Shown: positions 3,073 to 13,148 of the stretch, piece by piece
Layout: every line of letters begins with the position of its first letter
Numbering within the stretch: position 1 is the stretch's first letter
Origin: an uncultured Chloroflexia bacterium
GTDB taxonomy: Bacteria; Chloroflexota; Anaerolineae; Anaerolineales; UBA4823
Reading direction: 5' to 3'
Assembly: GCA_963774275.1 (NCBI GenBank)
Contig: CAVZEP010000033.1
Location: 99,954-123,953, forward strand
DNA length: 24,000 nt
Translations under genes and position numbers: made by a program
The notes under the pieces: generated by a model
Told to the model about the DNA's origin: nothing
The model's input: the letters and a program-made list of their open reading frames with translations, nothing else
Database searches by the model: none

Positions 3073-3777
3073 ATGGTAGCGTATTCCCTGTTACCTTTTC
3101 GGGAGGTGCAACGACATATGATTGGTATCACAGCGCAACAGTTCATGTGTAGGATACGTATGCTCAAACTCACCACACTATCTCTGTTCTTGACCTTTTT
3201 TAGCGCTCATCTAAATGGCAAAGCTGCTGACAGCTCAGTCACGAACGATGTTGAGCTGGCACGCCAAGCCGCTGGTAGTCCAGATGCCTTCACCGAGTTA
3301 TATCATCGCTATCTCCCCGGTATCTATCGCTACCACCTGGCGCGCACGGGTCACGTTCAGGAAGCTGAAGATCTGACTGCCCAAACCTTCCTCACTGCTC
3401 TGGAATCTATCCGGAGTTTCCGTGGGCAAGGCAGCTTTTCTTCCTGGCTGTTTGGTATTGCCAGCCACAAGCTGGTAGACCACTACCGCCGTAGCCGCAT
3501 TGAGCTACCCTTGGAAGAGGCGGAAACTCTGCACAGCCCCATCCCACTGCCAGAGGAAGCCACCCTGCAGCACCTGGAATTGGCACGCGTGGCGCAGGTG
3601 CTGCGCCTGATCAGTCCTGATCGGGCGGAAGCATTGGTACTCTGTCTATTTGGTGGATTGAGCCTGGCTGAGGCAGCCAAATCGGTGGGTAAGAGCGAGG
3701 CAGCAGTGAAGATGTTGGTTCATCGAGGCTTAAGTGACCTGCAGGAACGGTTAGCTGCACATCTGGAGGTGGCGTGA
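3073..3777 (+). CDS. ECF-type RNA polymerase sigma-70 family factor
   Basis: Region 2: FTELYHRYLPGIYRYHLARTGHVQEAEDLTAQTFLTALESIRSFRG...SWLFGIASHKLVDHYRR. Region 4 HTH: PDRAEALVLCLFGGLSLAEAAKSVGKSEAAVKMLVHRGLSDLQERL. The start is uncertain: ATG 3118 follows GGAGG, and ATG 3160 is also possible. The stop overlaps the next gene (GTGATGA). Confidence 0.85.
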   Translation: MVAYSLLPFREVQRHMIGITAQQFMCRIRMLKLTTLSLFLTFFSAHLNGKAADSSVTNDVELARQAAGSPDAFTELYHRYLPGIYRYHLARTGHVQEAEDLTAQTFLTALESIRSFRGQGSFSSWLFGIASHKLVDHYRRSRIELPLEEAETLHSPIPLPEEATLQHLELARVAQVLRLISPDRAEALVLCLFGGLSLAEAAKSVGKSEAAVKMLVHRGLSDLQERLAAHLEVA

Positions 3778-5624
3778 TGAACGAAAACCAAAAGCTTCCT
3801 TCGGCCAAAGAGCTTGCTGAGCTGTCCGCCTACTTAGCCGCCCGCGAGCGTGGGGTGCAGCCCGCAACCGACGCTCCTGGTTTTCCAGGCGGTCTTGCGG
3901 GGGCACTGCTCAAGTTGGCTGAAAGCACCGAGCCTGATCCTGATTTTGTTGCTCGGCTGGAGCGAGAGCTTCGCCAGGCAGCCAGGACAGGTGTGCACGC
4001 CTCCCGCACGAGTTGGCTGTCTGCGCTGTGGCAATCATTCTCCCTACCCGAAAGGAAAATTGCCATGAAACGCTTACTTACATTTGCAGTCGTCGGTATT
4101 ATCTTGTTCGTCGTATTGTGGGTGTCGATCCCATCTCTCTTCCCATCCTCCACCCAAACACAGGTGGCACTGGTTACCCCACCCACTCATACCCCCGCAC
4201 CCACACCCCTGTCGCCTCTCACCCCTACCGTGGTTCCGCCCACCTTGCCTTCACCGGTAGCGATCAACTTTACCCCTCAACCCATCCCCGTACAACCACC
4301 TGCTTTACCAGACCTGGTGAGTGCCCTTGGAGCAGGTTATGGAGGGTCGGGTGGAGGTAACCTGCCAGAAGGGTTGCCTCTCAGCCTGGCCACCCAGCTG
4401 CCTGCTGGTCCATCAGAGGTCACCGCTTATTACCGCCTGGAGAATACCCCACTGACCCTCGAAGAAGCCAGCCAGATTGCTGCTAAGTGGGGCCTGGAGC
4501 CAAAGTTGTATATGCCTGGCTGGATGCAGTCTATTTCACCTGACGAGATGGAGCGTAGCTACATCGCCGTGGATGGGATGCAGGCTCTCTCCATATGGAA
4601 CGGTGAGCTGTCTTACACGGACCTATCGATTTTTCCCATCTATGCTGGTCACCAATACCCGCAAATGGGTCTGCCCCCTTCAGACCAGGCAGCTGTGACT
4701 GCCACTCAATACCTGACCGAGCGCGGCATCCTGGATTACCCCTATATAGTTGACCTGAGTGGTTACGATTATGGATTGGTTAATTTCTACCGTCAGTTGG
4801 ACGACCTGACCATCAGTTTTCACGCCGCTTCGGTTAAGATCAATCCGCAAGGGCAGGTAGGCTCAGCCTGGGTCAGTCGGGAGCAGTACCAATCCGTTGG
4901 AACCTACCCGGTTTTGAGCGCCGAAAAAGCCTGGGACTTACTCGTCGCTGGGCAACCCAGTGATCAGCTGTCCATCTCATACTACCCGACTCAAGACGGC
5001 AACCCCCAGTATTGGGGTCGGGTATACCCGGTAGGTCAATCTGTTCACTTGTTTGGCTCTCCTACCTACTGGCTGTCAGCGGATACTGGGGCAATGCCCC
5101 ATGTGCAGCTGAATAACCTGGTGCTGGCAGGAGATGTGTCTGGTCTTATGGAATACCTCCAGGCGAACCCGGGCTATATCCACGCCTGGGGGGAGGTGCA
5201 GGACGTGGATGGCACTCGCCAGCTGCAGCTGGCAGGCTGGGAGCCTTTTGATGAATTCAGTGGCTACTTTGATGGCACCGTAGGGCGTACCGCTGAAGGT
5301 GACTTTCTTGAGCTGGGTGATGGAAGGCGATTGAGCCTGCCCAACCTGCCTGCCGATGTTCCAGACGGCATCCCACTCTACGCTGAAGGGGGACTGGTAG
5401 GTGATAGCCTGGAATGGTTCATCTTGCAGGTTCACACGTCTGATGAAGGGCAGATGCCACCCGACCTGAGCCAGGCTCAAGCGGTAATTGATAAGGTCGA
5501 GCTGGTTTACCTCGCCCCCGGTCTGAGCAACGTGTCCCCCGCATATGGCACTCGACCCGGCTTTCCGCATGCTGTTGCCTGCCTGGAGCTTCTCCGGACT
5601 GATTACCAATGTGGATGGAACTGA
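3774..5624 (+). CDS. Putative membrane-anchored anti-sigma factor with a large extracytoplasmic domain
   Basis: 4-nt start/stop overlap with the ECF sigma gene. ~100-aa cytoplasmic N-terminus, a single TM helix (LLTFAVVGIILFVVLWVSIPSLF), a Pro-rich linker and a ~430-aa external domain with no family I recognise. No ZAS HxxxCxxC motif. The call is by position and topology only. Confidence 0.5.
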   Translation: MMNENQKLPSAKELAELSAYLAARERGVQPATDAPGFPGGLAGALLKLAESTEPDPDFVARLERELRQAARTGVHASRTSWLSALWQSFSLPERKIAMKRLLTFAVVGIILFVVLWVSIPSLFPSSTQTQVALVTPPTHTPAPTPLSPLTPTVVPPTLPSPVAINFTPQPIPVQPPALPDLVSALGAGYGGSGGGNLPEGLPLSLATQLPAGPSEVTAYYRLENTPLTLEEASQIAAKWGLEPKLYMPGWMQSISPDEMERSYIAVDGMQALSIWNGELSYTDLSIFPIYAGHQYPQMGLPPSDQAAVTATQYLTERGILDYPYIVDLSGYDYGLVNFYRQLDDLTISFHAASVKINPQGQVGSAWVSREQYQSVGTYPVLSAEKAWDLLVAGQPSDQLSISYYPTQDGNPQYWGRVYPVGQSVHLFGSPTYWLSADTGAMPHVQLNNLVLAGDVSGLMEYLQANPGYIHAWGEVQDVDGTRQLQLAGWEPFDEFSGYFDGTVGRTAEGDFLELGDGRRLSLPNLPADVPDGIPLYAEGGLVGDSLEWFILQVHTSDEGQMPPDLSQAQAVIDKVELVYLAPGLSNVSPAYGTRPGFPHAVACLELLRTDYQCGWN

Positions 5625-5780: not shown

Positions 5781-6551
5781 TCATGAAAGGGATTTACCGG
5801 GTATGGTCTTAGGCAGGAAGACTGTCCACAATAACATCACTGTGATCAAGCCGAATGTGATCCAGGTGGGTGTCGTAACTGCCCGTACGTCAGCGTGCTT
5901 GATGGCAATTCCGGCCAACGCCCACAGCAGAACCAGCGCATAAGCTATATCTCGCCGGGTAAAATTCATCAAGGCTGCGATCACCAACACGGCGATCAAA
6001 ATAATAGCCATCCAAATTTCCGGGGTTATCCCGATGCCGTCCCATTTCAAGTAATCGAGCACCGAAGTGATATTTGCCACCGTCGCGACTGTAATCCAAC
6101 CCAGGTAGATGCTGAAGGGCACGCGCGCTGCCCATTTCTCAATTGTTGATACCGAACTCCGTCCAATTCCAAGCCCCAGGTAGGTTGCGATCAGTGAGCC
6201 GAGCAGGATCAGCATGGCTACCACGGTCAACGGGAATTGCTCATAATGCCACAGGAAGATCCAGGCGATGTTCGCCAGTCCGCCCAGGGTGATCCACCAA
6301 CCCGTAGCACGCAAGCGGGGATTCTCTCGCTGGGAAGGTAAAACCTGGAAAATAGCGAAGGCAATCAGCCCAAGGTAGATTAAACCCCAGATGGAAAAAA
6401 CATACCCCGCCGGTACAAAATATACCCGGAAACGGTCAGAGATTTCCCCGGTATTCTGGCCGTTAATGGGTAAGGCATTGGCCAGTGTGTTTACCACAAT
6501 GGTAGCCGCTATGGTAAGGATTACAGAGATTTGTCGCAGGATATCTTTCAT
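5781..6551 (-). CDS. Tryptophan-rich multi-pass membrane protein, TspO/MBR-related (long form)
   Basis: ~7-8 predicted TM helices and 12 Trp. The N-terminal block NTLANALPINGQNTGEISDRFRVYFVPAGYVFSIWGLIYLGL resembles the long 'tryptophan-rich sensory protein' family as I remember it. RBS GGGAG upstream. The family call is from memory, not a search. Confidence 0.5.
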   Translation of the reverse strand: MKDILRQISVILTIAATIVVNTLANALPINGQNTGEISDRFRVYFVPAGYVFSIWGLIYLGLIAFAIFQVLPSQRENPRLRATGWWITLGGLANIAWIFLWHYEQFPLTVVAMLILLGSLIATYLGLGIGRSSVSTIEKWAARVPFSIYLGWITVATVANITSVLDYLKWDGIGITPEIWMAIILIAVLVIAALMNFTRRDIAYALVLLWALAGIAIKHADVRAVTTPTWITFGLITVMLLWTVFLPKTIPGKSLS

Positions 6552-6872
6552 GTTATTTACTCCCTATACTTTCTAAAACAGTGGATTTTCGATCATTCAA
6601 ACTTCCAGCCAAAGATAACAACCTCTTCATCTCTACCAAAGGGTTTCGAGATGAAAGTATTTTTGGTGGGTAAATATGGTGTGAATAAGTTGCATTTTTC
6701 CTCTTCGATTAGCCGTTCGATGCCAGTTTTCAGGATGATACGACCAATGATACAGCATTGTCGGACATTAATGGCTAGACCAAGCTTAACCCTACTCAAT
6801 TGACAAAAAAATTCAGCTACAAGAATTTTTCATGGGTTTATCTATAATCCGTCATGCATCAACCCAAACCAG

Positions 6873-8174
6873 TCATTCAGAAAGCAAATGTTTTGTAAGC
6901 CAATCCTGGATCACCGCACCCTCCTGTCCAAGATAACGTTCTACAGACTGGCGGTAAGATGAAAAATACTGTTTCACCCATCCGGTTGGGAGCCCATGAT
7001 TCTTAAGTAAGCCAATCAGCCAGGTGACCGCTGGATCTAAAAAAGAAATATCACCCAGTCTCAATGCAGAAGCAATGTATTGGCTGAGATTCATGTTGGC
7101 GACTTCCAAATAATTAGGCTCGATACCCTCATCTTGCATAGCAGAAAAGATATGTGCAATTATGAGTGCCTGATTCTTATTGAACTGCGCCAATGTTCGA
7201 GAATATTCGGGCGAGATTGGCTGAGTTTCCGGTAGGGAAGGAGACGTTACAACCAAGCGCTCGATGATCTGAGGAACCAGCATCAAGTCAGATCCCAGGT
7301 AATAACCAGAAATACACTTGGTGGCGGCAGGAATTTTTGTGAATATTCCACCTCCGAAAGCCATTGGAACACCTTGAGAGGCGATGTTTTCAGACATTGA
7401 GCGCAGGGAGGCTGCACTATTGAGTGTTTGAGCAGAAGAGAGGATTAATATTGGCGAGGTAGCTTGGATGGTGACATCCAGAGCATCGAGAGGCACACTG
7501 GCTCCCAGATAGATCATATCCCAACCACGCCTTCTAAGCAGGTAAGTAATCAACAGAAGGATGAAGTCGTGCGCCTCACCGGGTGGGCATGCAGCAAGGA
7601 TTCGCCCAGGTCGCGCAGGAGGTGTGGAAGAGATGGCAGACAGCAGGGTGTTGATCCTGCGCATGGCGATTGCGGAGGCAAAATGCTCCTGTTGAACGCT
7701 GATAGACCCGGTGTACCAGCCCTCTCCAATCTGTACCAGGCCTTTCCGCAGCACTTCCGTACAGACCGTCTCCGGGGATGCAATCGAGAAAGCCTGATCC
7801 AGTGTTTGGTTGGCAGCCTGGTCGTCAAAAACCAGGCAGGCAGCCAGCCATGCATCACGATGCTCATCGAGCATGGTTCCACCTGAGCCTGAGACCAGAA
7901 GGGGAGCATAGGTTGATTGTGCAGATTTAATTTGGCTTTTTGGCTGGCCCTTCCACATCTCTACTGCACTGCTGATGCTCAAGCCCTCTTTTTGCCTCTC
8001 GATCAGCCATTTGAGCATTTCGATATCCTGCCTGGAGTAAAGGCGATGACCACCGGGAGTCCGCTGTGGCTTGAGGAGCCCATAACGACGCTCCCATGCC
8101 CGTAAAGTTGCCGGGCTTAAACCTACTTCGTTAATTACCGCTTTCAGGTTATAGATGGGAGTATTGTCTGCCAT
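6873..8174 (-). CDS. litR: CarH/LitR-family light-responsive transcriptional regulator (MerR HTH + adenosylcobalamin-binding domain) with an extra ~124-aa C-terminal domain
   Basis: MerR HTH: YNLKAVINEVGLSPATLRAWERRYGLLKPQRTPGGHRLYSRQDIEMLKWL. Four-helix-bundle W-x9-E-H signature: GEGW(153)YTGSISVQQE(163)H(164)FAS. B12 lower-ligand motif: ACPPGE-A-H(202)DF...YLGASVPLDAL, with the H202 codon at 7569-7571. I chose start ATG 8174 (MADNTPIY). The track start 8279 would overlap the upstream gene by 37 nt and adds non-conserved residues. Confidence 0.85.
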   Translation of the reverse strand: MADNTPIYNLKAVINEVGLSPATLRAWERRYGLLKPQRTPGGHRLYSRQDIEMLKWLIERQKEGLSISSAVEMWKGQPKSQIKSAQSTYAPLLVSGSGGTMLDEHRDAWLAACLVFDDQAANQTLDQAFSIASPETVCTEVLRKGLVQIGEGWYTGSISVQQEHFASAIAMRRINTLLSAISSTPPARPGRILAACPPGEAHDFILLLITYLLRRRGWDMIYLGASVPLDALDVTIQATSPILILSSAQTLNSAASLRSMSENIASQGVPMAFGGGIFTKIPAATKCISGYYLGSDLMLVPQIIERLVVTSPSLPETQPISPEYSRTLAQFNKNQALIIAHIFSAMQDEGIEPNYLEVANMNLSQYIASALRLGDISFLDPAVTWLIGLLKNHGLPTGWVKQYFSSYRQSVERYLGQEGAVIQDWLTKHLLSE

Positions 8175-8242
8175 ATGGATGCCTATTTTGATAAAAAAAG
8201 TCTTTCCACAGCCCAATTCCGATGGATTACATTCCCGTGAGT

Positions 8243-9013
8243 TTATACCGGTGCCAGGGTGCCTGCAAAGATGATCCATGCCAGGACGGTCTTGGCAGCC
8301 AGGCTCAGGATGATATACACACGCTCGCCAAATAGATAATCCTTCCAGGGACCGACCTTCTTATATTGCAGCACCATATTCACTGCGAAGATGTTGAAGA
8401 AGACAAACAAGGTGGGGATGATGGCGTACACAAAAGCGGGTGGTTTTCCACCTTCACCAGCCAATGAGCCGATGAAATAGGTCACGATCACAATCCAGGG
8501 GATGATGCCAGCGATGGACCCATAGATGAATGCGGTCCAATTCGTCTTTTGCGTGTTCTGGTTATGGAGCTCCATCATGATTCCGAACAGGTTCATCATG
8601 GCATTGATACCAAAGATGAGTATGATGGCACCCAGGTCATAAATGCCCACCAGCATGCCAATCAGAACGATCATCACAGAAGAGGAAAGCGCATATTCAT
8701 AAAACCGTACTGGGTTCATGCCCTTCTTCAAGTTCGATACGTAAAGCTTGTTCCCGATTGTAGCCAGGAAAAAGTGCGCTACAGCCGAGATTAGCAGAAA
8801 GACCGCCACCGCAGGTCCAAAGCGAAGTTCAGCAGCCAATTTAAGGTCGGGGACCAGGGCCATTTTGGTCAAATCGAATTTCAGGAAGCTGGTATAAATC
8901 GGATAGGCGGTATCATTGCTTAGTACAATCATCAGGATGCCCTGTACCAGGTGTAAAAAGCCCATCACCAGGTTGAAACGGCGTAATCCCTTGAATTTCT
9001 TGTCGTTGTCCAT
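8243..9013 (-). CDS. Heliorhodopsin (retinal-binding 7-TM photoreceptor, inverted topology)
   Basis: By-eye alignment to heliorhodopsin 48C12:
- RFNLVMGFLHLVQ..LSND vs NFNRIAGVFHLLQ..LAND
- VRFYEYALSSSVMIVLIG vs FRWVEYSLSSSVMIVLIA
- GIIPWIVIV vs GIVPWIGLL
- FVYAIIPTLFVFFNIFA vs FVYGIIISLFLFFNSFA
- GERVYIILSLAAKTVLAWIIFAGTLAPV vs GERAYIVLSLVAKSALAWQIFSGTLIPA
Schiff-base Lys is K241 (codon 8291-8293). The counterion Glu is E106, and H21 and H80 are conserved. RBS GGAG upstream. Confidence 0.9.
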   Translation of the reverse strand: MDNDKKFKGLRRFNLVMGFLHLVQGILMIVLSNDTAYPIYTSFLKFDLTKMALVPDLKLAAELRFGPAVAVFLLISAVAHFFLATIGNKLYVSNLKKGMNPVRFYEYALSSSVMIVLIGMLVGIYDLGAIILIFGINAMMNLFGIMMELHNQNTQKTNWTAFIYGSIAGIIPWIVIVTYFIGSLAGEGGKPPAFVYAIIPTLFVFFNIFAVNMVLQYKKVGPWKDYLFGERVYIILSLAAKTVLAWIIFAGTLAPV

Positions 9014-9098
9014 TTTTATTCTCCATTCTACTTATGATTTTTTCCCCAAAAATGTCCCTCGTTTGGTGAATGAGCATTTAGTGGGTATTTATGGTAAA

Positions 9099-9142
9099 TT
9101 GTACATATATTGTATAGTTAATAATAACATATTGTATATATA
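9099..9142 (-). promoter_or_regulatory. Putative CarH/LitR operator: four phased 11-bp direct repeats
   Basis: Read on the minus strand: tAtaTatACAa (9142-9132), tAtgTtaTTAt (9131-9121, degenerate), tAacTatACAa (9120-9110), tAtaTgtACAa (9109-9099). Three of the four fit nAnnTnnACAn exactly. On the plus strand, TTGTAYA recurs at 9099, 9110 and 9132, which is an exact 11-bp register. The array lies 86-129 nt upstream of the heliorhodopsin ATG. Confidence 0.5.
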
Positions 9143-9149
9143 TTGGCAA
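9121..9149 (-). promoter_or_regulatory. Putative sigma70-type promoter of the heliorhodopsin-litR unit
   Basis: Minus strand: TTGCCA (9149-9144), a 17-nt spacer, then TATTAT (9126-9121). The direct repeats occupy the spacer, the -10 and the predicted +1 region. The region is AT-rich, so a chance match is possible. Confidence 0.35.
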
Positions 9150-9302
9150 GGAAATTGGGATTAATAGTTGCTTAAAAAAGTAGAAAATTAATCACGATAA
9201 CCGGGAGCGTTAATACATGGATCTCCTGATTTAGAACTGGTTACCGCCGGATAATATAGTACCGTTGTGTAAAAAGAAATCCTGGGGGTGAGGCGCTTTA
9301 TT

Positions 9303-10793
9303 TCAATCCAGCTCAGTCAGCTCATCCATGATTCGTTTTGCCACCAGGCGGGCAGAGATCATGGAGGTCGGGATACCTGTGCCGGGATGAGTGCTTGCGC
9401 CTACGAAGTATAAATTGTGCAAGCGCGGGTGTCGGTTGGAAGGGCGAAAATATCCCAATTGGGTCAAGTTATGCGATAAGCCGTGTGTGGAACCGTTCAC
9501 CAGGTTATATCGTTTACGCCAGGAAAGGGGTGTGAAAGACGTCTCAAATTTGATATGGGCTTCAAGATCTGTTATGCCAAGAGTCCGCAGCCGGCGGAAC
9601 ACGTGTGCGCGTGCCAGGTCTGTCAGGTTATCCCAATCCTGTTCCCCATTCTCAGACAGGTGCCCCACGGGTACGATGGCGATCAGGGTATCTTCACCTG
9701 GGGGTGCCATGGAGGGGTCAAGCCGCGTCGGAGCGTGGACATACAGGCTGGGATTGGCAGGTAGATCAAGGTCACGAATGATGGAATCAAAATTAGCTCG
9801 ATAATCATCCGCCAGGAAAAGGGTGTGTGGACCCAGGGTCTCGTAGGGTTTATCCACGCCCCAAAAGAAACTGATTACTGAGCATGAATAGTTCTTGCGG
9901 GATAATTTTTCTGCCAGGCCATCCATCGGCAGCAGGCTCTGGTATACATACGGCAGGTCGGCATTTGCCAGGAACACGTCCGCCCCCATTTTTAGGTTAT
10001 GTTCAAGTGTCACATCCTTGACGTGACCACTATCGACATTGATCCCCTCCGCGGTAGTATCAAAAGCAAATTCCACTCCAGCCTCACGAGCCAGGGCCAT
10101 GAGCGCATCCACGATGCTGTACATTCCTCCTTTCGGATACCACACCCCATGCGCTAGCTCTGTATACTGCATCAAGGAAAAGGTTGCAGGACCTTCAAAA
10201 GGGCTTAACCCCATGTACACGTCCTGGAAAGTGAATGCCGCCTTTAACCGTGGATTGTCGAAATATGCCGACATGTTGGCATAGTGTTTTACCAATGGTT
10301 TTAGCTGAAAAAGCAGTGGGATATTACCCAGGGAAAAGAATTCGGAAAATCGGCGAAAATCACGGTTGACTAACTTTTCCATCCCCAAACGATAGTGCCG
10401 TTCGCCCTCCTCATGATAGCGCATGAAACCCTGATATGCGCCTGCTTCAATTGATTCCAGCTGATCCCTCATGGATTGCATGTCCGAGGTGAGTGCCAGC
10501 TGGCTGCCATCGTCGAAAACCAGGCGATACGTCGGGTCCAACTGCTGCAGATTGAGTAAATTACTCATCGAGGTACCTAATGCTGCGAATTCTGCTTCAT
10601 AGACTCGTGGCATCACCAGCAGGGTTGGACCGGTATCAAAATGGTGACCCTCACGCTCAATCCAATCACAGCGCCCACCCGGGTTGGGGTTCTTTTCCAC
10701 CACAGTGACATGCAAGCCATGAGATGCCAGGTGGGTCGCTGCGCAGATCCCACCTATCCCCGCGCCGATGATAACCACTGATTTAGATTTCAT
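9303..10793 (-). CDS. crtI: Phytoene desaturase (bacterial CrtI type)
   Basis: N-terminal FAD fold VVIIGAGIGGICAATHLASHGLHVTVVEKNPNPGGRC. FDTGPTLL motif. C-terminal bacterial phytoene dehydrogenase signature NLYFVGASTHPGTGIPTSMISARL. The ATG overlaps the crtB stop (ATGA at 10790-10793). Confidence 0.9.
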   Translation of the reverse strand: MKSKSVVIIGAGIGGICAATHLASHGLHVTVVEKNPNPGGRCDWIEREGHHFDTGPTLLVMPRVYEAEFAALGTSMSNLLNLQQLDPTYRLVFDDGSQLALTSDMQSMRDQLESIEAGAYQGFMRYHEEGERHYRLGMEKLVNRDFRRFSEFFSLGNIPLLFQLKPLVKHYANMSAYFDNPRLKAAFTFQDVYMGLSPFEGPATFSLMQYTELAHGVWYPKGGMYSIVDALMALAREAGVEFAFDTTAEGINVDSGHVKDVTLEHNLKMGADVFLANADLPYVYQSLLPMDGLAEKLSRKNYSCSVISFFWGVDKPYETLGPHTLFLADDYRANFDSIIRDLDLPANPSLYVHAPTRLDPSMAPPGEDTLIAIVPVGHLSENGEQDWDNLTDLARAHVFRRLRTLGITDLEAHIKFETSFTPLSWRKRYNLVNGSTHGLSHNLTQLGYFRPSNRHPRLHNLYFVGASTHPGTGIPTSMISARLVAKRIMDELTELD

Positions 10794-11760
10794 CTTTCCT
10801 CGATTCGGTCTGATAAAGCCACCTGTTCACCTGGCTCTAGTTTCATCCAGGGAAAGTTAGCTATCGAAGTAAAGACCCTCCAGGCTATCCATAAACCAGC
10901 CTTGACGCTTTTTCGTTCGGGATATTCCGGTCGAAGGTAGTATTGATCCTGCTCAATCCTTCTGAGCATCCACTCAAAACGGGCAAGATAAGCGTAAGCT
11001 GCCAGTCGACTGCGCAGGTTTTTAACCTGGGCCATGTACTTCCTGCCACCGCTGAAATAGTGGCGGGCTAACTCCACTCTCCCGAATACCCACTTCCGGA
11101 ACGACAGGCGTGTGCAATTCTGCTAACGAAATCTTCTCTGATTGGATATATTCGCCGGGAATATTGAAATATCCTGCGGATATATCTTCCACTGTATCGC
11201 GCAGCATATGCACCATATGCGCACCGCACACTGCATCGTAACGGGTTTCAGAAATGGGAGGGGGATCTTTGTGACCGATCAAGTAAAACAGCACCTCCGT
11301 CACAGCCGTGGAGAGTAAATGTGTATATTCGGTTAATTCGGCGTGGGAAATAACTCGACCACAGCGTTCCACGTCAAATGCCATCACCTTCATCATATTG
11401 CTTAGATAAAACTGCAGCCCACTGTGTTCTTCCTGATCGTTTCGGACCAAATCCACCAGCATCTGCTCCTCAGGGCTCACATCTCCCGGAAAATTCCCCT
11501 GATAACAAGCCTCCAGAAACGCTTGCTGATGTTGTATCAGGGTGATCTTTTCTTGTTTTGTACCTGAATTGCAGTCAAGAAGATCGTCCAACCATCGAAA
11601 ATAGGCATAAGCCCGAAAAGCATCGTCCACACGCTCTCGATCCGCTAAGAGACGGAATGTGTAATACGTCTGCTTGCTGCCTGCTCTGGTAATCCTGGCA
11701 GGTAAACCTGGCTCCCCCGATTGCGTAGAGTGCTTTGAGCGATATAACAGTTTTGAACAT
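10790..11760 (-). pseudogene. crtB: Phytoene/squalene synthase family gene (CrtB-like) interrupted by two apparent +1 frameshifts
   Basis: Three reading segments cover one family-typical protein:
- MFKTVISLKALYAIG... starts at ATG 11760.
- ...GLPARITRAGSKQTYYTFRLLADRERVDDAFRAYAYFRWLDDLLD...MVHMLRDTVEDISAGYFNIPGEYI is the frame of track ORF 11022-11630, open upstream to 11750 with no ATG/GTG/TTG.
- SFRKWVFGRVELARHYFSGGRKYM...AAYAYLARFEWMLRRIE is track ORF 10790-11077.
The shifts lie at the C5 run 11714-11718 and within about 11101-11120. Confidence 0.8.
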
Positions 11761-12026
11761 ATTTATCAACTTTCCGAATCCGGATTACAAGTATACTCCG
11801 TTAATTATTACGTAAAATGAGTGTGAACGCCTCAGATAAGATAGACATAATGATCGGGGTTACTTCCTGGAAAATAGAGGATTAATCAGCAGGGTTAATC
11901 GATTAGCTGTGGCAGGAATTAATACTCATCATAATTATCATAATAAAGGAAATGATCGTATGAGGCATATGTGGTGGTAAGATTATCTCACTCAACTAAA
12001 AAAACACATTACTACTGGAGGGATTT

Positions 12027-13148
12027 ATGGATGCAAAAATGCAAGCCACTGCATTGGCCAGCTTGAAAGATGAGCTCAATGGAGGCTACCTGTACGATGC
12101 CCTAGCCCAAGCGGAGAAAGATACCCGCCTGGCAGAAGTTTATCGGCGGATGGCAGTCGTGGAGCGCAAGCATGCTGCCGTATGGACGGAAAGGTTAAAA
12201 GCTGCCGGGGTGGCAATCCCTGAGTTTGTGCCTAATTGGCGTAGCCGAACCCTTGCCTGGGCAGCCAAACGCCTGGGTGTGGCAGCAGTTTTACCCACGG
12301 TCATTGGGAATGAACGGAAAGATAGCCGTAAATATGCTCACACACCCGGTGGTGCAGAGATGGCAGCGGATGAATCATCCCATAACCGCTTGCTGAGTCG
12401 CGTGGCTTCCACCATGAAGGGTGGGATGGAGGGTGGGGCGCTGGCTCAACTGGAGGGAAGGCATCGGGCGGGTGGTGGCAATGCATTGCGCGCCGCGGTA
12501 CTTGGTGCAAATGATGGCCTGGTATCAAATTTGAGCCTGGTTATGGGCGTTGCTGGGGCTGCGCTTAATAATTCAGCCATCCTGATCACCGGTTTTGCTG
12601 GGTTACTGGCTGGTGCAATCTCGATGGCCCTGGGGGAATGGCTCTCGGTACAAAGCTCAAGGGAATTGTACAAGCATCAGATTGGCATTGAAAAAGCTGA
12701 GCTGGCAGCCGCCCCAGAAGAAGAAGCGGAAGAGTTGGCATTGATCTATGAGGCACGTGGCGTACCCAAGGATGAGGCCCAACGCATGGCACAGCACATT
12801 ATCAGTGACCCGGCTTCAGCCCTCGAAACGTTGGCACGCGAAGAGCTTAATGTGAATCCATCCGAGTTGGGTGGTTCAGCCTGGGAGGCAGCCCTAACAT
12901 CCTTCTTTCTTTTCACCATTGGGGCGATCATCCCTGTGATTGCCTTTACTTTCCTCACCGGTTTTACTGCGGTGATTGTCAGCATGGTATTGAGCGGGGT
13001 CGGGCTATTTATCATCGGTGCGGGTATTACCCTGTTCACCGGGCGAAATTTGCTTTATTCTGGTGTGAGGCAGGTATTATTTGGCCTGATTGCAGCCATG
13101 GTCACCTATGGTATCGGCCGGTTGGTCGGAGGTAATCTGGGCGGATAG
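12027..13148 (+). CDS. mbfA: Erythrin-VIT1 fusion (MbfA-like membrane-bound ferritin / VIT-family iron exporter)
   Basis: N-terminal ferritin-like domain (LNGGYLYDALAQAEKDTRLAEVYRRMAVVERKHAAVW). C-terminal VIT1/CCC1 domain (ALRAAVLGANDGLVSNLSLVMGVAGA, GEWLSVQSSRE, TM helices at the C-terminus). RBS GGAGG at 12017-12021. Confidence 0.8.
   Translation: MDAKMQATALASLKDELNGGYLYDALAQAEKDTRLAEVYRRMAVVERKHAAVWTERLKAAGVAIPEFVPNWRSRTLAWAAKRLGVAAVLPTVIGNERKDSRKYAHTPGGAEMAADESSHNRLLSRVASTMKGGMEGGALAQLEGRHRAGGGNALRAAVLGANDGLVSNLSLVMGVAGAALNNSAILITGFAGLLAGAISMALGEWLSVQSSRELYKHQIGIEKAELAAAPEEEAEELALIYEARGVPKDEAQRMAQHIISDPASALETLAREELNVNPSELGGSAWEAALTSFFLFTIGAIIPVIAFTFLTGFTAVIVSMVLSGVGLFIIGAGITLFTGRNLLYSGVRQVLFGLIAAMVTYGIGRLVGGNLGG

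Follow-up and report, generated by a model that had tools for sequence, protein, structure and literature searches.

A phased array of 11-bp direct repeats was identified upstream of a heliorhodopsin (HeR) gene in DNA of an Anaerolineae bacterium. The array is quite probably the operator of a B12-dependent CarH-type photoreceptor-repressor, placed in the core promoter of a HeR-carH-(membrane protein) operon. This assignment is made because of the repeats themselves, their phasing and rarity, their overlap with a predicted promoter, their conservation, their association with carH genes and the CarH-like signatures of the encoded regulator. If the assignment is true, the bacterium makes a retinal light sensor only after a B12-based photoreceptor has seen light. 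The function of HeR has been debated since its discovery and few protein partners are known. An HeR gene under a B12-photoreceptor operator would place HeR in the light-induced response of non-phototrophic Anaerolineae.

Repeat array, predicted promoter and gene neighbourhood

Positions 9142–9099 of the window (the whole stretch of DNA analysed, 24 kb) read, on the minus strand, as four 11-bp units: TATATATACAA / TATGTTATTAT / TAACTATACAA / TATATGTACAA. Units 1, 3 and 4 are exact matches to nAnnTnnACAn, and unit 2 retains A2, T5 and A10 only. A first-pass annotation of this DNA had reported four units at these coordinates together with a TTGCCA-17-TATTAT promoter, and all of this was correct when the minus strand was re-read; the CarH consensus that it had named, nAnnTnnACAn, is the one given in PMC8156234. 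The strict 11-bp phasing is real and was confirmed independently by Tandem Repeats Finder (period 11, 4.4 copies at 9098–9145).

A promoter scan of positions 6700–12100 gave its top score to TTGCCA (9149–9144) and TATTAT (9126–9121) with a 17-nt spacer (10 of 12 matches), and TG precedes the −10 hexamer of this predicted sigma-70-like promoter. The promoter is predicted by consensus match only, and promoter use in the host may differ. Its overlap with the array is as first described: the spacer contains DR1, the −10 lies in unit 2 and DR3–DR4 surround the predicted start. The −35 hexamer occupies unit positions 5–10 of the preceding unit, dr0, the same positions as those of the TnnACA core; dr0 has T5, with CCA where ACA would be expected. 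As this −35 unit (ttccTtgCCAa) is itself a near-repeat, the array consists of five units. The fuller tract, 9153–9099 on the minus strand, reads ttccTTGCCAa TATATATACAA tatgtTATTAT TAACTATACAA TATATGTACAA and lies inside the 289-nt crtI-HeR gap (Table 1). The two further units upstream of the −35, in the same register, may be a UP-like element, a second regulator site or degenerate repeats.

Table 1. Features of the HeR locus, with coordinates in the window
Feature	Position	Strand	Basis
Multi-pass membrane protein, 256 aa, no family	5781..6551	−	No Pfam/NCBIfam match
Regulator, 433 aa: MerR winged-helix, CarH-type B12-binding and predicted C-terminal globin-like domains	6873..8174	−	Pfam, CarH alignment, AF2
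Heliorhodopsin (HeR), 256 aa, first gene past the putative operator	8243..9013	−	PF18761, NF038020
Remaining predicted 5' leader, with GGAG 9–12 nt before ATG; not conserved	9014..9098	−	Sequence, alignment, Rfam scan
DR4 TATATGTACAA, ~+6 to +16 of predicted start	9099..9109	−	Exact unit
DR3 TAACTATACAA, ~−6 to +5 of predicted start	9110..9120	−	Exact unit; +1 inferred from −10
dr2 pseudorepeat tatgtTATTAT; unit positions 6–11 are the −10 hexamer	9121..9131	−	Promoter scan
DR1 TATATATACAA, in promoter spacer	9132..9142	−	Exact consensus unit
dr0 near-repeat ttccTtgCCAa, holding the −35	9143..9153	−	Promoter scan
Two 11-bp units ttaagcaacta ttaatcccaat, upstream of −35, in array register	9154..9175	−	Upstream-region alignment, register table
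crtI	10793–9303	−	Annotation
crtB, one frameshift near 11108	~11759–10793	−	Annotation, CrtB alignment

Single nAnnTnnACAn matches numbered 59 on both strands of the 24 kb. Phased matches (11, 22 or 33 nt apart) were found only in the array upstream of HeR in the whole window. For a null distribution, the 289-nt intergenic region and the AT-rich cores within it (121 and 71 nt) were each shuffled 20,000 times. For the 289-nt region, at least three of four phased TnnACA units were present in 11 mononucleotide and six dinucleotide shuffles per 20,000, and the strict nAnnTnnACAn form appeared once per 20,000 in each shuffle type. Across all shuffled regions, cores included, the TnnACA form was seen 2–12 times and the strict form with A2 0–1 times per 20,000; the array rate in composition-matched shuffles was about 3–6 per 10,000. 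The TnnACA core overlaps the −35 consensus TTGACA, so single units are somewhat enriched in promoter-rich DNA.

The first gene past the array was identified as HeR with large margins (PF18761, E=2.3e-101, 338.6 bits against a cut-off of 26.7; NCBIfam HeR equivalog NF038020, 369.3 bits against a cut-off of 100). The regulator gene follows on the same strand after a gap of 68 nt in which no promoter-like or terminator-like site was predicted, in agreement with the earlier proposal that the regulator is encoded in the HeR operon. The membrane protein is probably the last gene of this operon. It is Trp-rich, and homologues stand beside carH-type genes in many loci (L002, L005, L006, L081, L107, L123, L142, L152, L159 and L164), often divergent from carH with a repeat array between them; this family is probably another regulon member. 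An Rfam scan of the whole 24-kb window gave zero matches, indicating that the HeR leader holds no cobalamin riboswitch or other known RNA. On inspection for a PpsR/CrtJ-type TGT-N12-ACA palindrome, the spacing did not fit.

The carotenoid genes crtB and crtI are outside direct control of the HeR operator and are without an array of their own. The best candidate in 11600–12030 has one full unit, which bears out the initial observation that no comparable array precedes crtB. No terminator was found between crtI and HeR by pattern scan, and the RNA fold of 9150–9310 was no more stable than that of shuffles (z=0.37); with no terminator detected, read-through from crtBI could allow HeR transcription that does not depend on the operator. 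Among the annotated ORFs of the window, none was recognised as a lycopene cyclase or as a carotenoid-cleaving (retinal-forming) gene, so the locus does not show where the HeR chromophore comes from. A related CrtB of 322 aa matches 11729–11109 in frame −2 and 11107–10793 in frame −3, and the crtB frameshift (~11100–11115) is either a pseudogene mutation or an assembly error. At 3073–5624 on the plus strand, a gene for an ECF-type sigma factor overlaps the start of a 616-aa gene whose product has one predicted membrane segment and may be an anti-sigma factor; the two genes run towards the end of the HeR-carH operon, convergent with it. A sigma factor is linked to light control in the LitR-LitS system of Streptomyces.

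Domain architecture of the regulator

An identical 433-aa database protein supports the start of the regulator at MADNT. Matches to PF13411 and PF00376 identified an N-terminal MerR-type winged-helix DNA-binding domain, and the best PDB sequence match was Thermus CarH, with an E value of about 1e-32 across both domains. The recognition-helix segment LRxWERRYG and the wing RTPGGHRLYS are identical in the two proteins. The Wx9EH motif (WYTGSISVQQEH, residues 153–164) aligned with that of Thermus CarH, as did the axial His, for which PPGEAHDF of the regulator aligns to PPGERHEI of Thermus (E200-x-H202). The W, E and H of Wx9EH and the axial His were invariant in 46 relatives. With respect to the B12 motif ExHx2G-x41-SxV/T-x22-27-GG, E200-x-H202, the spacing and the GG are present, G is replaced by I (EAHDFI) and SxV/T reads SAQ.

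The first-pass annotation had named the regulator LitR. The CarH-like domains were recovered, but the protein is not a plain two-domain LitR/CarH, as a conserved helical domain of ~130 aa, predicted to be globin-like, follows the Rossmann fold. The best family match was the NCBIfam CarH equivalog NF052513 at 148.6 bits, far below its cut-off of 400. A confident AlphaFold model of the regulator (pLDDT 85.9) matched the photocobilins 8J2W, 8J2X and 8J2Y over their full length at residues ~100–433, with TM scores of 0.80–0.83 (target-normalised) and 330–346 columns, and the B12 domains of Thermus CarH aligned to the model over only about 205 columns. Residues ~296–433 are accordingly modelled as a photocobilin-type globin-like domain, and this predicted fold match indicates that the regulator has a MerR-HTH + B12 + photoglobin architecture.

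By sequence, the C-terminal domain gave no significant PDB match either as a single sequence or as a 35-sequence profile, and a profile of the full-length regulator aligned to photocobilins through the globin domain. W385 of the regulator corresponds to Trp296 of SasPcob and appears conserved, whereas the alignment shows no conservation of the Asp270 equivalent. So far, the MerR-HTH + B12 + photoglobin architecture has been catalogued only computationally (PMC8717448). The literature examined described neither a DNA target nor a regulated gene for any MerR-fused photocobilin. The array would be the first DNA site predicted for this class of MerR + B12 + photoglobin proteins, together with a set of target genes.

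Repeat arrays in related loci

An HeR scan covered 80 loci from different Anaerolineae species, with HeR identities of 73–94 %. A carH gene directly follows HeR in 4 of the 80 (L002, L003, L005 and L006), and all four have at least three of four phased repeats on the gene strand, 51–77 nt before the ATG. Further HeR-carH loci were found via the regulator (L081, L161/L162, L163 and L164/L165); with the window, this made ten loci picked by gene order and not by motif. The scan of orthologous loci that had been suggested at the outset returned the same design upstream of HeR in 10 of 10 HeR-carH loci for which upstream DNA was available (eight different sequences), all sharing the skeleton 51–85 nt before the HeR ATG.

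The shared register consists of a −35 unit CTTGnnnA, DR1 as nAnnTATACAA, a −10 unit TATnnTATTAT, DR3 and DR4. Three full repeats are present in most HeR-carH loci and two are intact in L161/L162, and the −10 unit of every related locus contains TATTAT, TATAAT or TATATT. Other arrays include ones in which a TTGACA −35 forms a full repeat by itself. DR1 retained ACA in nine of nine and T5 in eight of nine synteny-selected loci, counts that are not fully independent since the related loci are phylogenetically linked. For nine loci selected by gene order, A2 was invariant in DR1, DR3 and DR4, and entropy was 0.33 bit at core positions vs 0.73 bit elsewhere, a modest difference (p=0.025). Position 2 was A in 32 of 42 units chosen only on T5 and ACA, which is an independent match to the Thermus consensus. 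The flanks of the array (5' leader and upstream DNA) were unalignable between HeR-carH loci.

Within 166 loci, an exact TTAATC-N5-TTAATC motif was found six times, in each case directly upstream of the −35. Positions of the TTAATC element are L006 5835–5851, L161 2819–2835, L163 23–39 and L164 3009–3025, and 9154–9175 (minus strand) in the window. A weak two-repeat candidate was seen upstream of crtB in L161. In L003, a near-perfect palindrome of ~58 bp with two TGTACA cores (CTGGTCTAATACTGTACAATAGTTGTACATTATTAGACCAG) was found at 12172–12229; it had a weak array score on both strands. On the same strand after HeR-carH, L164 (3143–9121), L165 and L166 contain genes for a DNA photolyase, a DUF2255 protein, a homologue of the membrane protein and an alpha/beta hydrolase. 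In some relatives the operon thus includes photolyase, and this gene order ties HeR to a wider set of light-damage genes.

Arrays were then scored as clusters, for which four phased units had to contain two or more full repeats and match the core at no fewer than 13 of 16 positions. With a profile of the regulator, 80 metagenome loci were detected, in which the commonest context was crtI followed by carH. Among these regulator loci, 12 of 13 clusters were at most 300 nt upstream of carH, or of a crtI or HeR gene preceding carH, a zone that makes up 4.9 % of the sequence (p=3e-15; p=9e-8 in AT-rich DNA only). Among the 80 HeR loci, 14 of 22 clusters were at most 350 nt upstream of HeR, in 3.4 % of the sequence (p=6e-16; p=8e-11 in AT-rich DNA only). 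The repeat of the enrichment test in AT-rich DNA served as a control for coding vs non-coding composition. This placement indicates that the motif behaves as an operator of the regulator family and that HeR is a recurrent target. Arrays also precede HeR without an adjacent carH (L001, L034 and L042), and L004 and L055 have them before an SDR gene with HeR next, which argues that HeR is itself a selected target. Distant relatives have arrays before crtI-carH, and thus the HeR clade appears to have put HeR behind a light-controlled promoter.

Strong arrays overlapping promoter-like sites were located in L004 (150–193 and 5348–5402), L055 (4528–4582), L042 (4313–4367), L043 (129–183) and L056 (1212–1266). 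The SDR-type gene before HeR encodes 515 aa and would be nearly leaderless in L004. Arrays also stand before the gene for an M50-like metallopeptidase (HExxH) in two species (L004 and L042) and before the genes for two secreted proteins (L043 and L056).

Predicted mechanism, alternatives and known systems

In the dark, the AdoCbl-loaded regulator would oligomerise, either as a tetramer, as in the CarH proteins of Thermus and Bacillus, or as two cooperating dimers. Characterised photocobilins bind AdoCbl and biliverdin and are dark-state dimers, and since the solved structures are dimeric in the dark, a tetramer is an assumption for this regulator. The winged-helix domains would bind DR1, DR3 and DR4 from one side of the helix and contact the −35 and −10 units more weakly, and cover from about −35 to about +16 would exclude RNA polymerase. 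Light from UV to green would photolyse the Co-C bond, the oligomer would dissociate and the promoter would be freed, after which HeR and more regulator, and probably the membrane protein too, would be made. In this scheme the regulator represses its own operon and would be subject to negative autoregulation. The globin-like domain of the model possibly binds a bilin, widening the spectral range.

MerR-type activators work at promoters with overlong spacers of about 19–20 nt. The spacer here is the optimal 17 nt and the sites cover −35, −10 and +1, which is repressor geometry, so that repression fits and MerR-type activation does not. It is very improbable that the regulator binds the array to activate in the manner of MerR, or to repress regardless of light like the B12-independent CarA, even though it is a MerR-family protein, its B12 motif departs from the classic form and its extra domain is without an established role in transcription factors. 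Absence of Wx9EH and the axial His explains the B12-independence of CarA, whereas both are present here and do not vary among the 46 relatives. Slightly less remote, but still improbable, is a different factor or a structural role for the tract, such as a bent AT-rich promoter, a UP-like element or a nucleoid-protein site, with a coincidental resemblance to CarH operators. The tract is 77–78 % A+T, AT-rich motifs phased at 11 bp could bend DNA, and a second phased and conserved motif (TTAATC twice) just upstream is unexplained; however, the conserved positions are A2, T5 and ACA rather than A-tracts, the pattern is rare in dinucleotide-preserving shuffles and arrays track carH-type genes where HeR is absent. 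Pure chance is the least probable explanation and is given almost no weight. The consensus fixes only 5 of 11 positions and low-complexity, TA-rich promoter DNA of this kind could match it loosely, but the shuffling check called for by the first-pass annotation showed that the pattern is not expected by chance (frequencies of 5e-5 to 6e-4), the array is unique in the window, and in-register conservation across species is accompanied by strong positional enrichment.

The array might instead be primarily an autoregulatory operator of carH, HeR having been inserted recently between this promoter and carH, so that light control of HeR would be a by-product and not something selected for. Most relatives of the regulator are encoded after crtI or alone, with arrays of two to three repeats just upstream of carH or crtI, and the HeR-carH order is limited to one clade. 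Against this, the arrangement has been kept in ten HeR-carH loci (eight distinct sequences) with regulator identity down to about 51–65 %, and arrays precede HeR, directly or with the SDR gene between, in the five loci without an adjacent carH noted above. This origin is considered unlikely, and HeR would still be light-regulated mechanistically under it.

Other HeRs are reported to modulate the products of genes in their own operons. A two-way, multi-chromophore circuit can be envisaged in which a MerR-photocobilin (binding B12 and possibly a bilin) gates HeR, and HeR binds and modulates that same regulator. We regard this as a speculative extension with a small chance of being right; if true, it would add a second colour channel or a memory to the switch and would supply the first DNA target and physiological output for photoglobin-containing transcription factors.

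A MerR-family regulator is among the ten frequent same-operon neighbours of HeR, and the classes of operon partner include glutamine synthetase, photolyase, an ABC transporter and the MerR regulator (PMC11109279). That study treats the neighbours as proteins that HeR may modulate, and gives neither a B12-photoreceptor identity for the regulator nor an operator upstream of HeR; B12 appears in it only within a reference. No link between CarH/LitR and heliorhodopsin was found in the literature searched, and no title or abstract among the matches listed tied CarH/LitR to a bacterial rhodopsin. The operator type is already known; within the literature searched, what is new is the HeR target and the fact that it is paired with a regulator bearing a photoglobin domain. 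Optogenetic control could make use of this compact natural promoter-operator design.

In CarH, every DNA-binding domain is in contact with one 11-bp direct repeat, nAnnTnnACAn, of which there are three in Thermus and four in Bacillus megaterium (PMC8156234). CarH operators may mix true repeats with pseudorepeats and overlap the −35 or −10, and that of Myxococcus has the order DR1-dr2-DR3-DR4-dr5, one repeat containing the −35 (PMC9304148). The arrangement dr0(−35)-DR1-dr2(−10)-DR3-DR4 fits this published design closely. As in Thermus thermophilus CarH (5C8E), nAnnTnnACAn repeats are paired with a very similar DNA-binding domain, Wx9EH and an axial His, and the −35 element lies inside a repeat unit, although that unit (dr0) is only a near-repeat here. 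The three Thermus repeats are contiguous, whereas here the −10 pseudorepeat splits DR1 from DR3–DR4; the spacing of DR1 and DR3 by one unit with DR4 adjacent fits the Thermus structure. The regulator here is also longer, at 433 aa compared with about 285–305 aa for Thermus CarH. Its predicted fold over residues ~100–433 resembles that of the photocobilins SasPcob (8J2W/8J2X) and AbDPcob (8J2Y), but those photocobilins that have been characterised either stand alone or are fusions with a diguanylate cyclase.

The operators of Bacillus megaterium CarH consist of four tandem 11-bp repeats, or of three and one pseudorepeat. Common to both are four phased units built on a TnnACA core, of which one is degenerate, an overlap with the −35 or −10, and a cognate MerR + B12 regulator that is autoregulated there and would be so here. 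The array differs in having HeR rather than carotenoid genes as its target, in the C-terminal globin-like domain carried by the regulator and in that binding is predicted here. Similarity is also evident to Pcrt (carB) of Myxococcus xanthus, where five units include true and degenerate repeats, a promoter hexamer lies in a unit and carH is in the regulated operon. The −35 is in DR4 in Myxococcus xanthus and in the first unit here, and the HeR locus is without the CarA/CarS layer.
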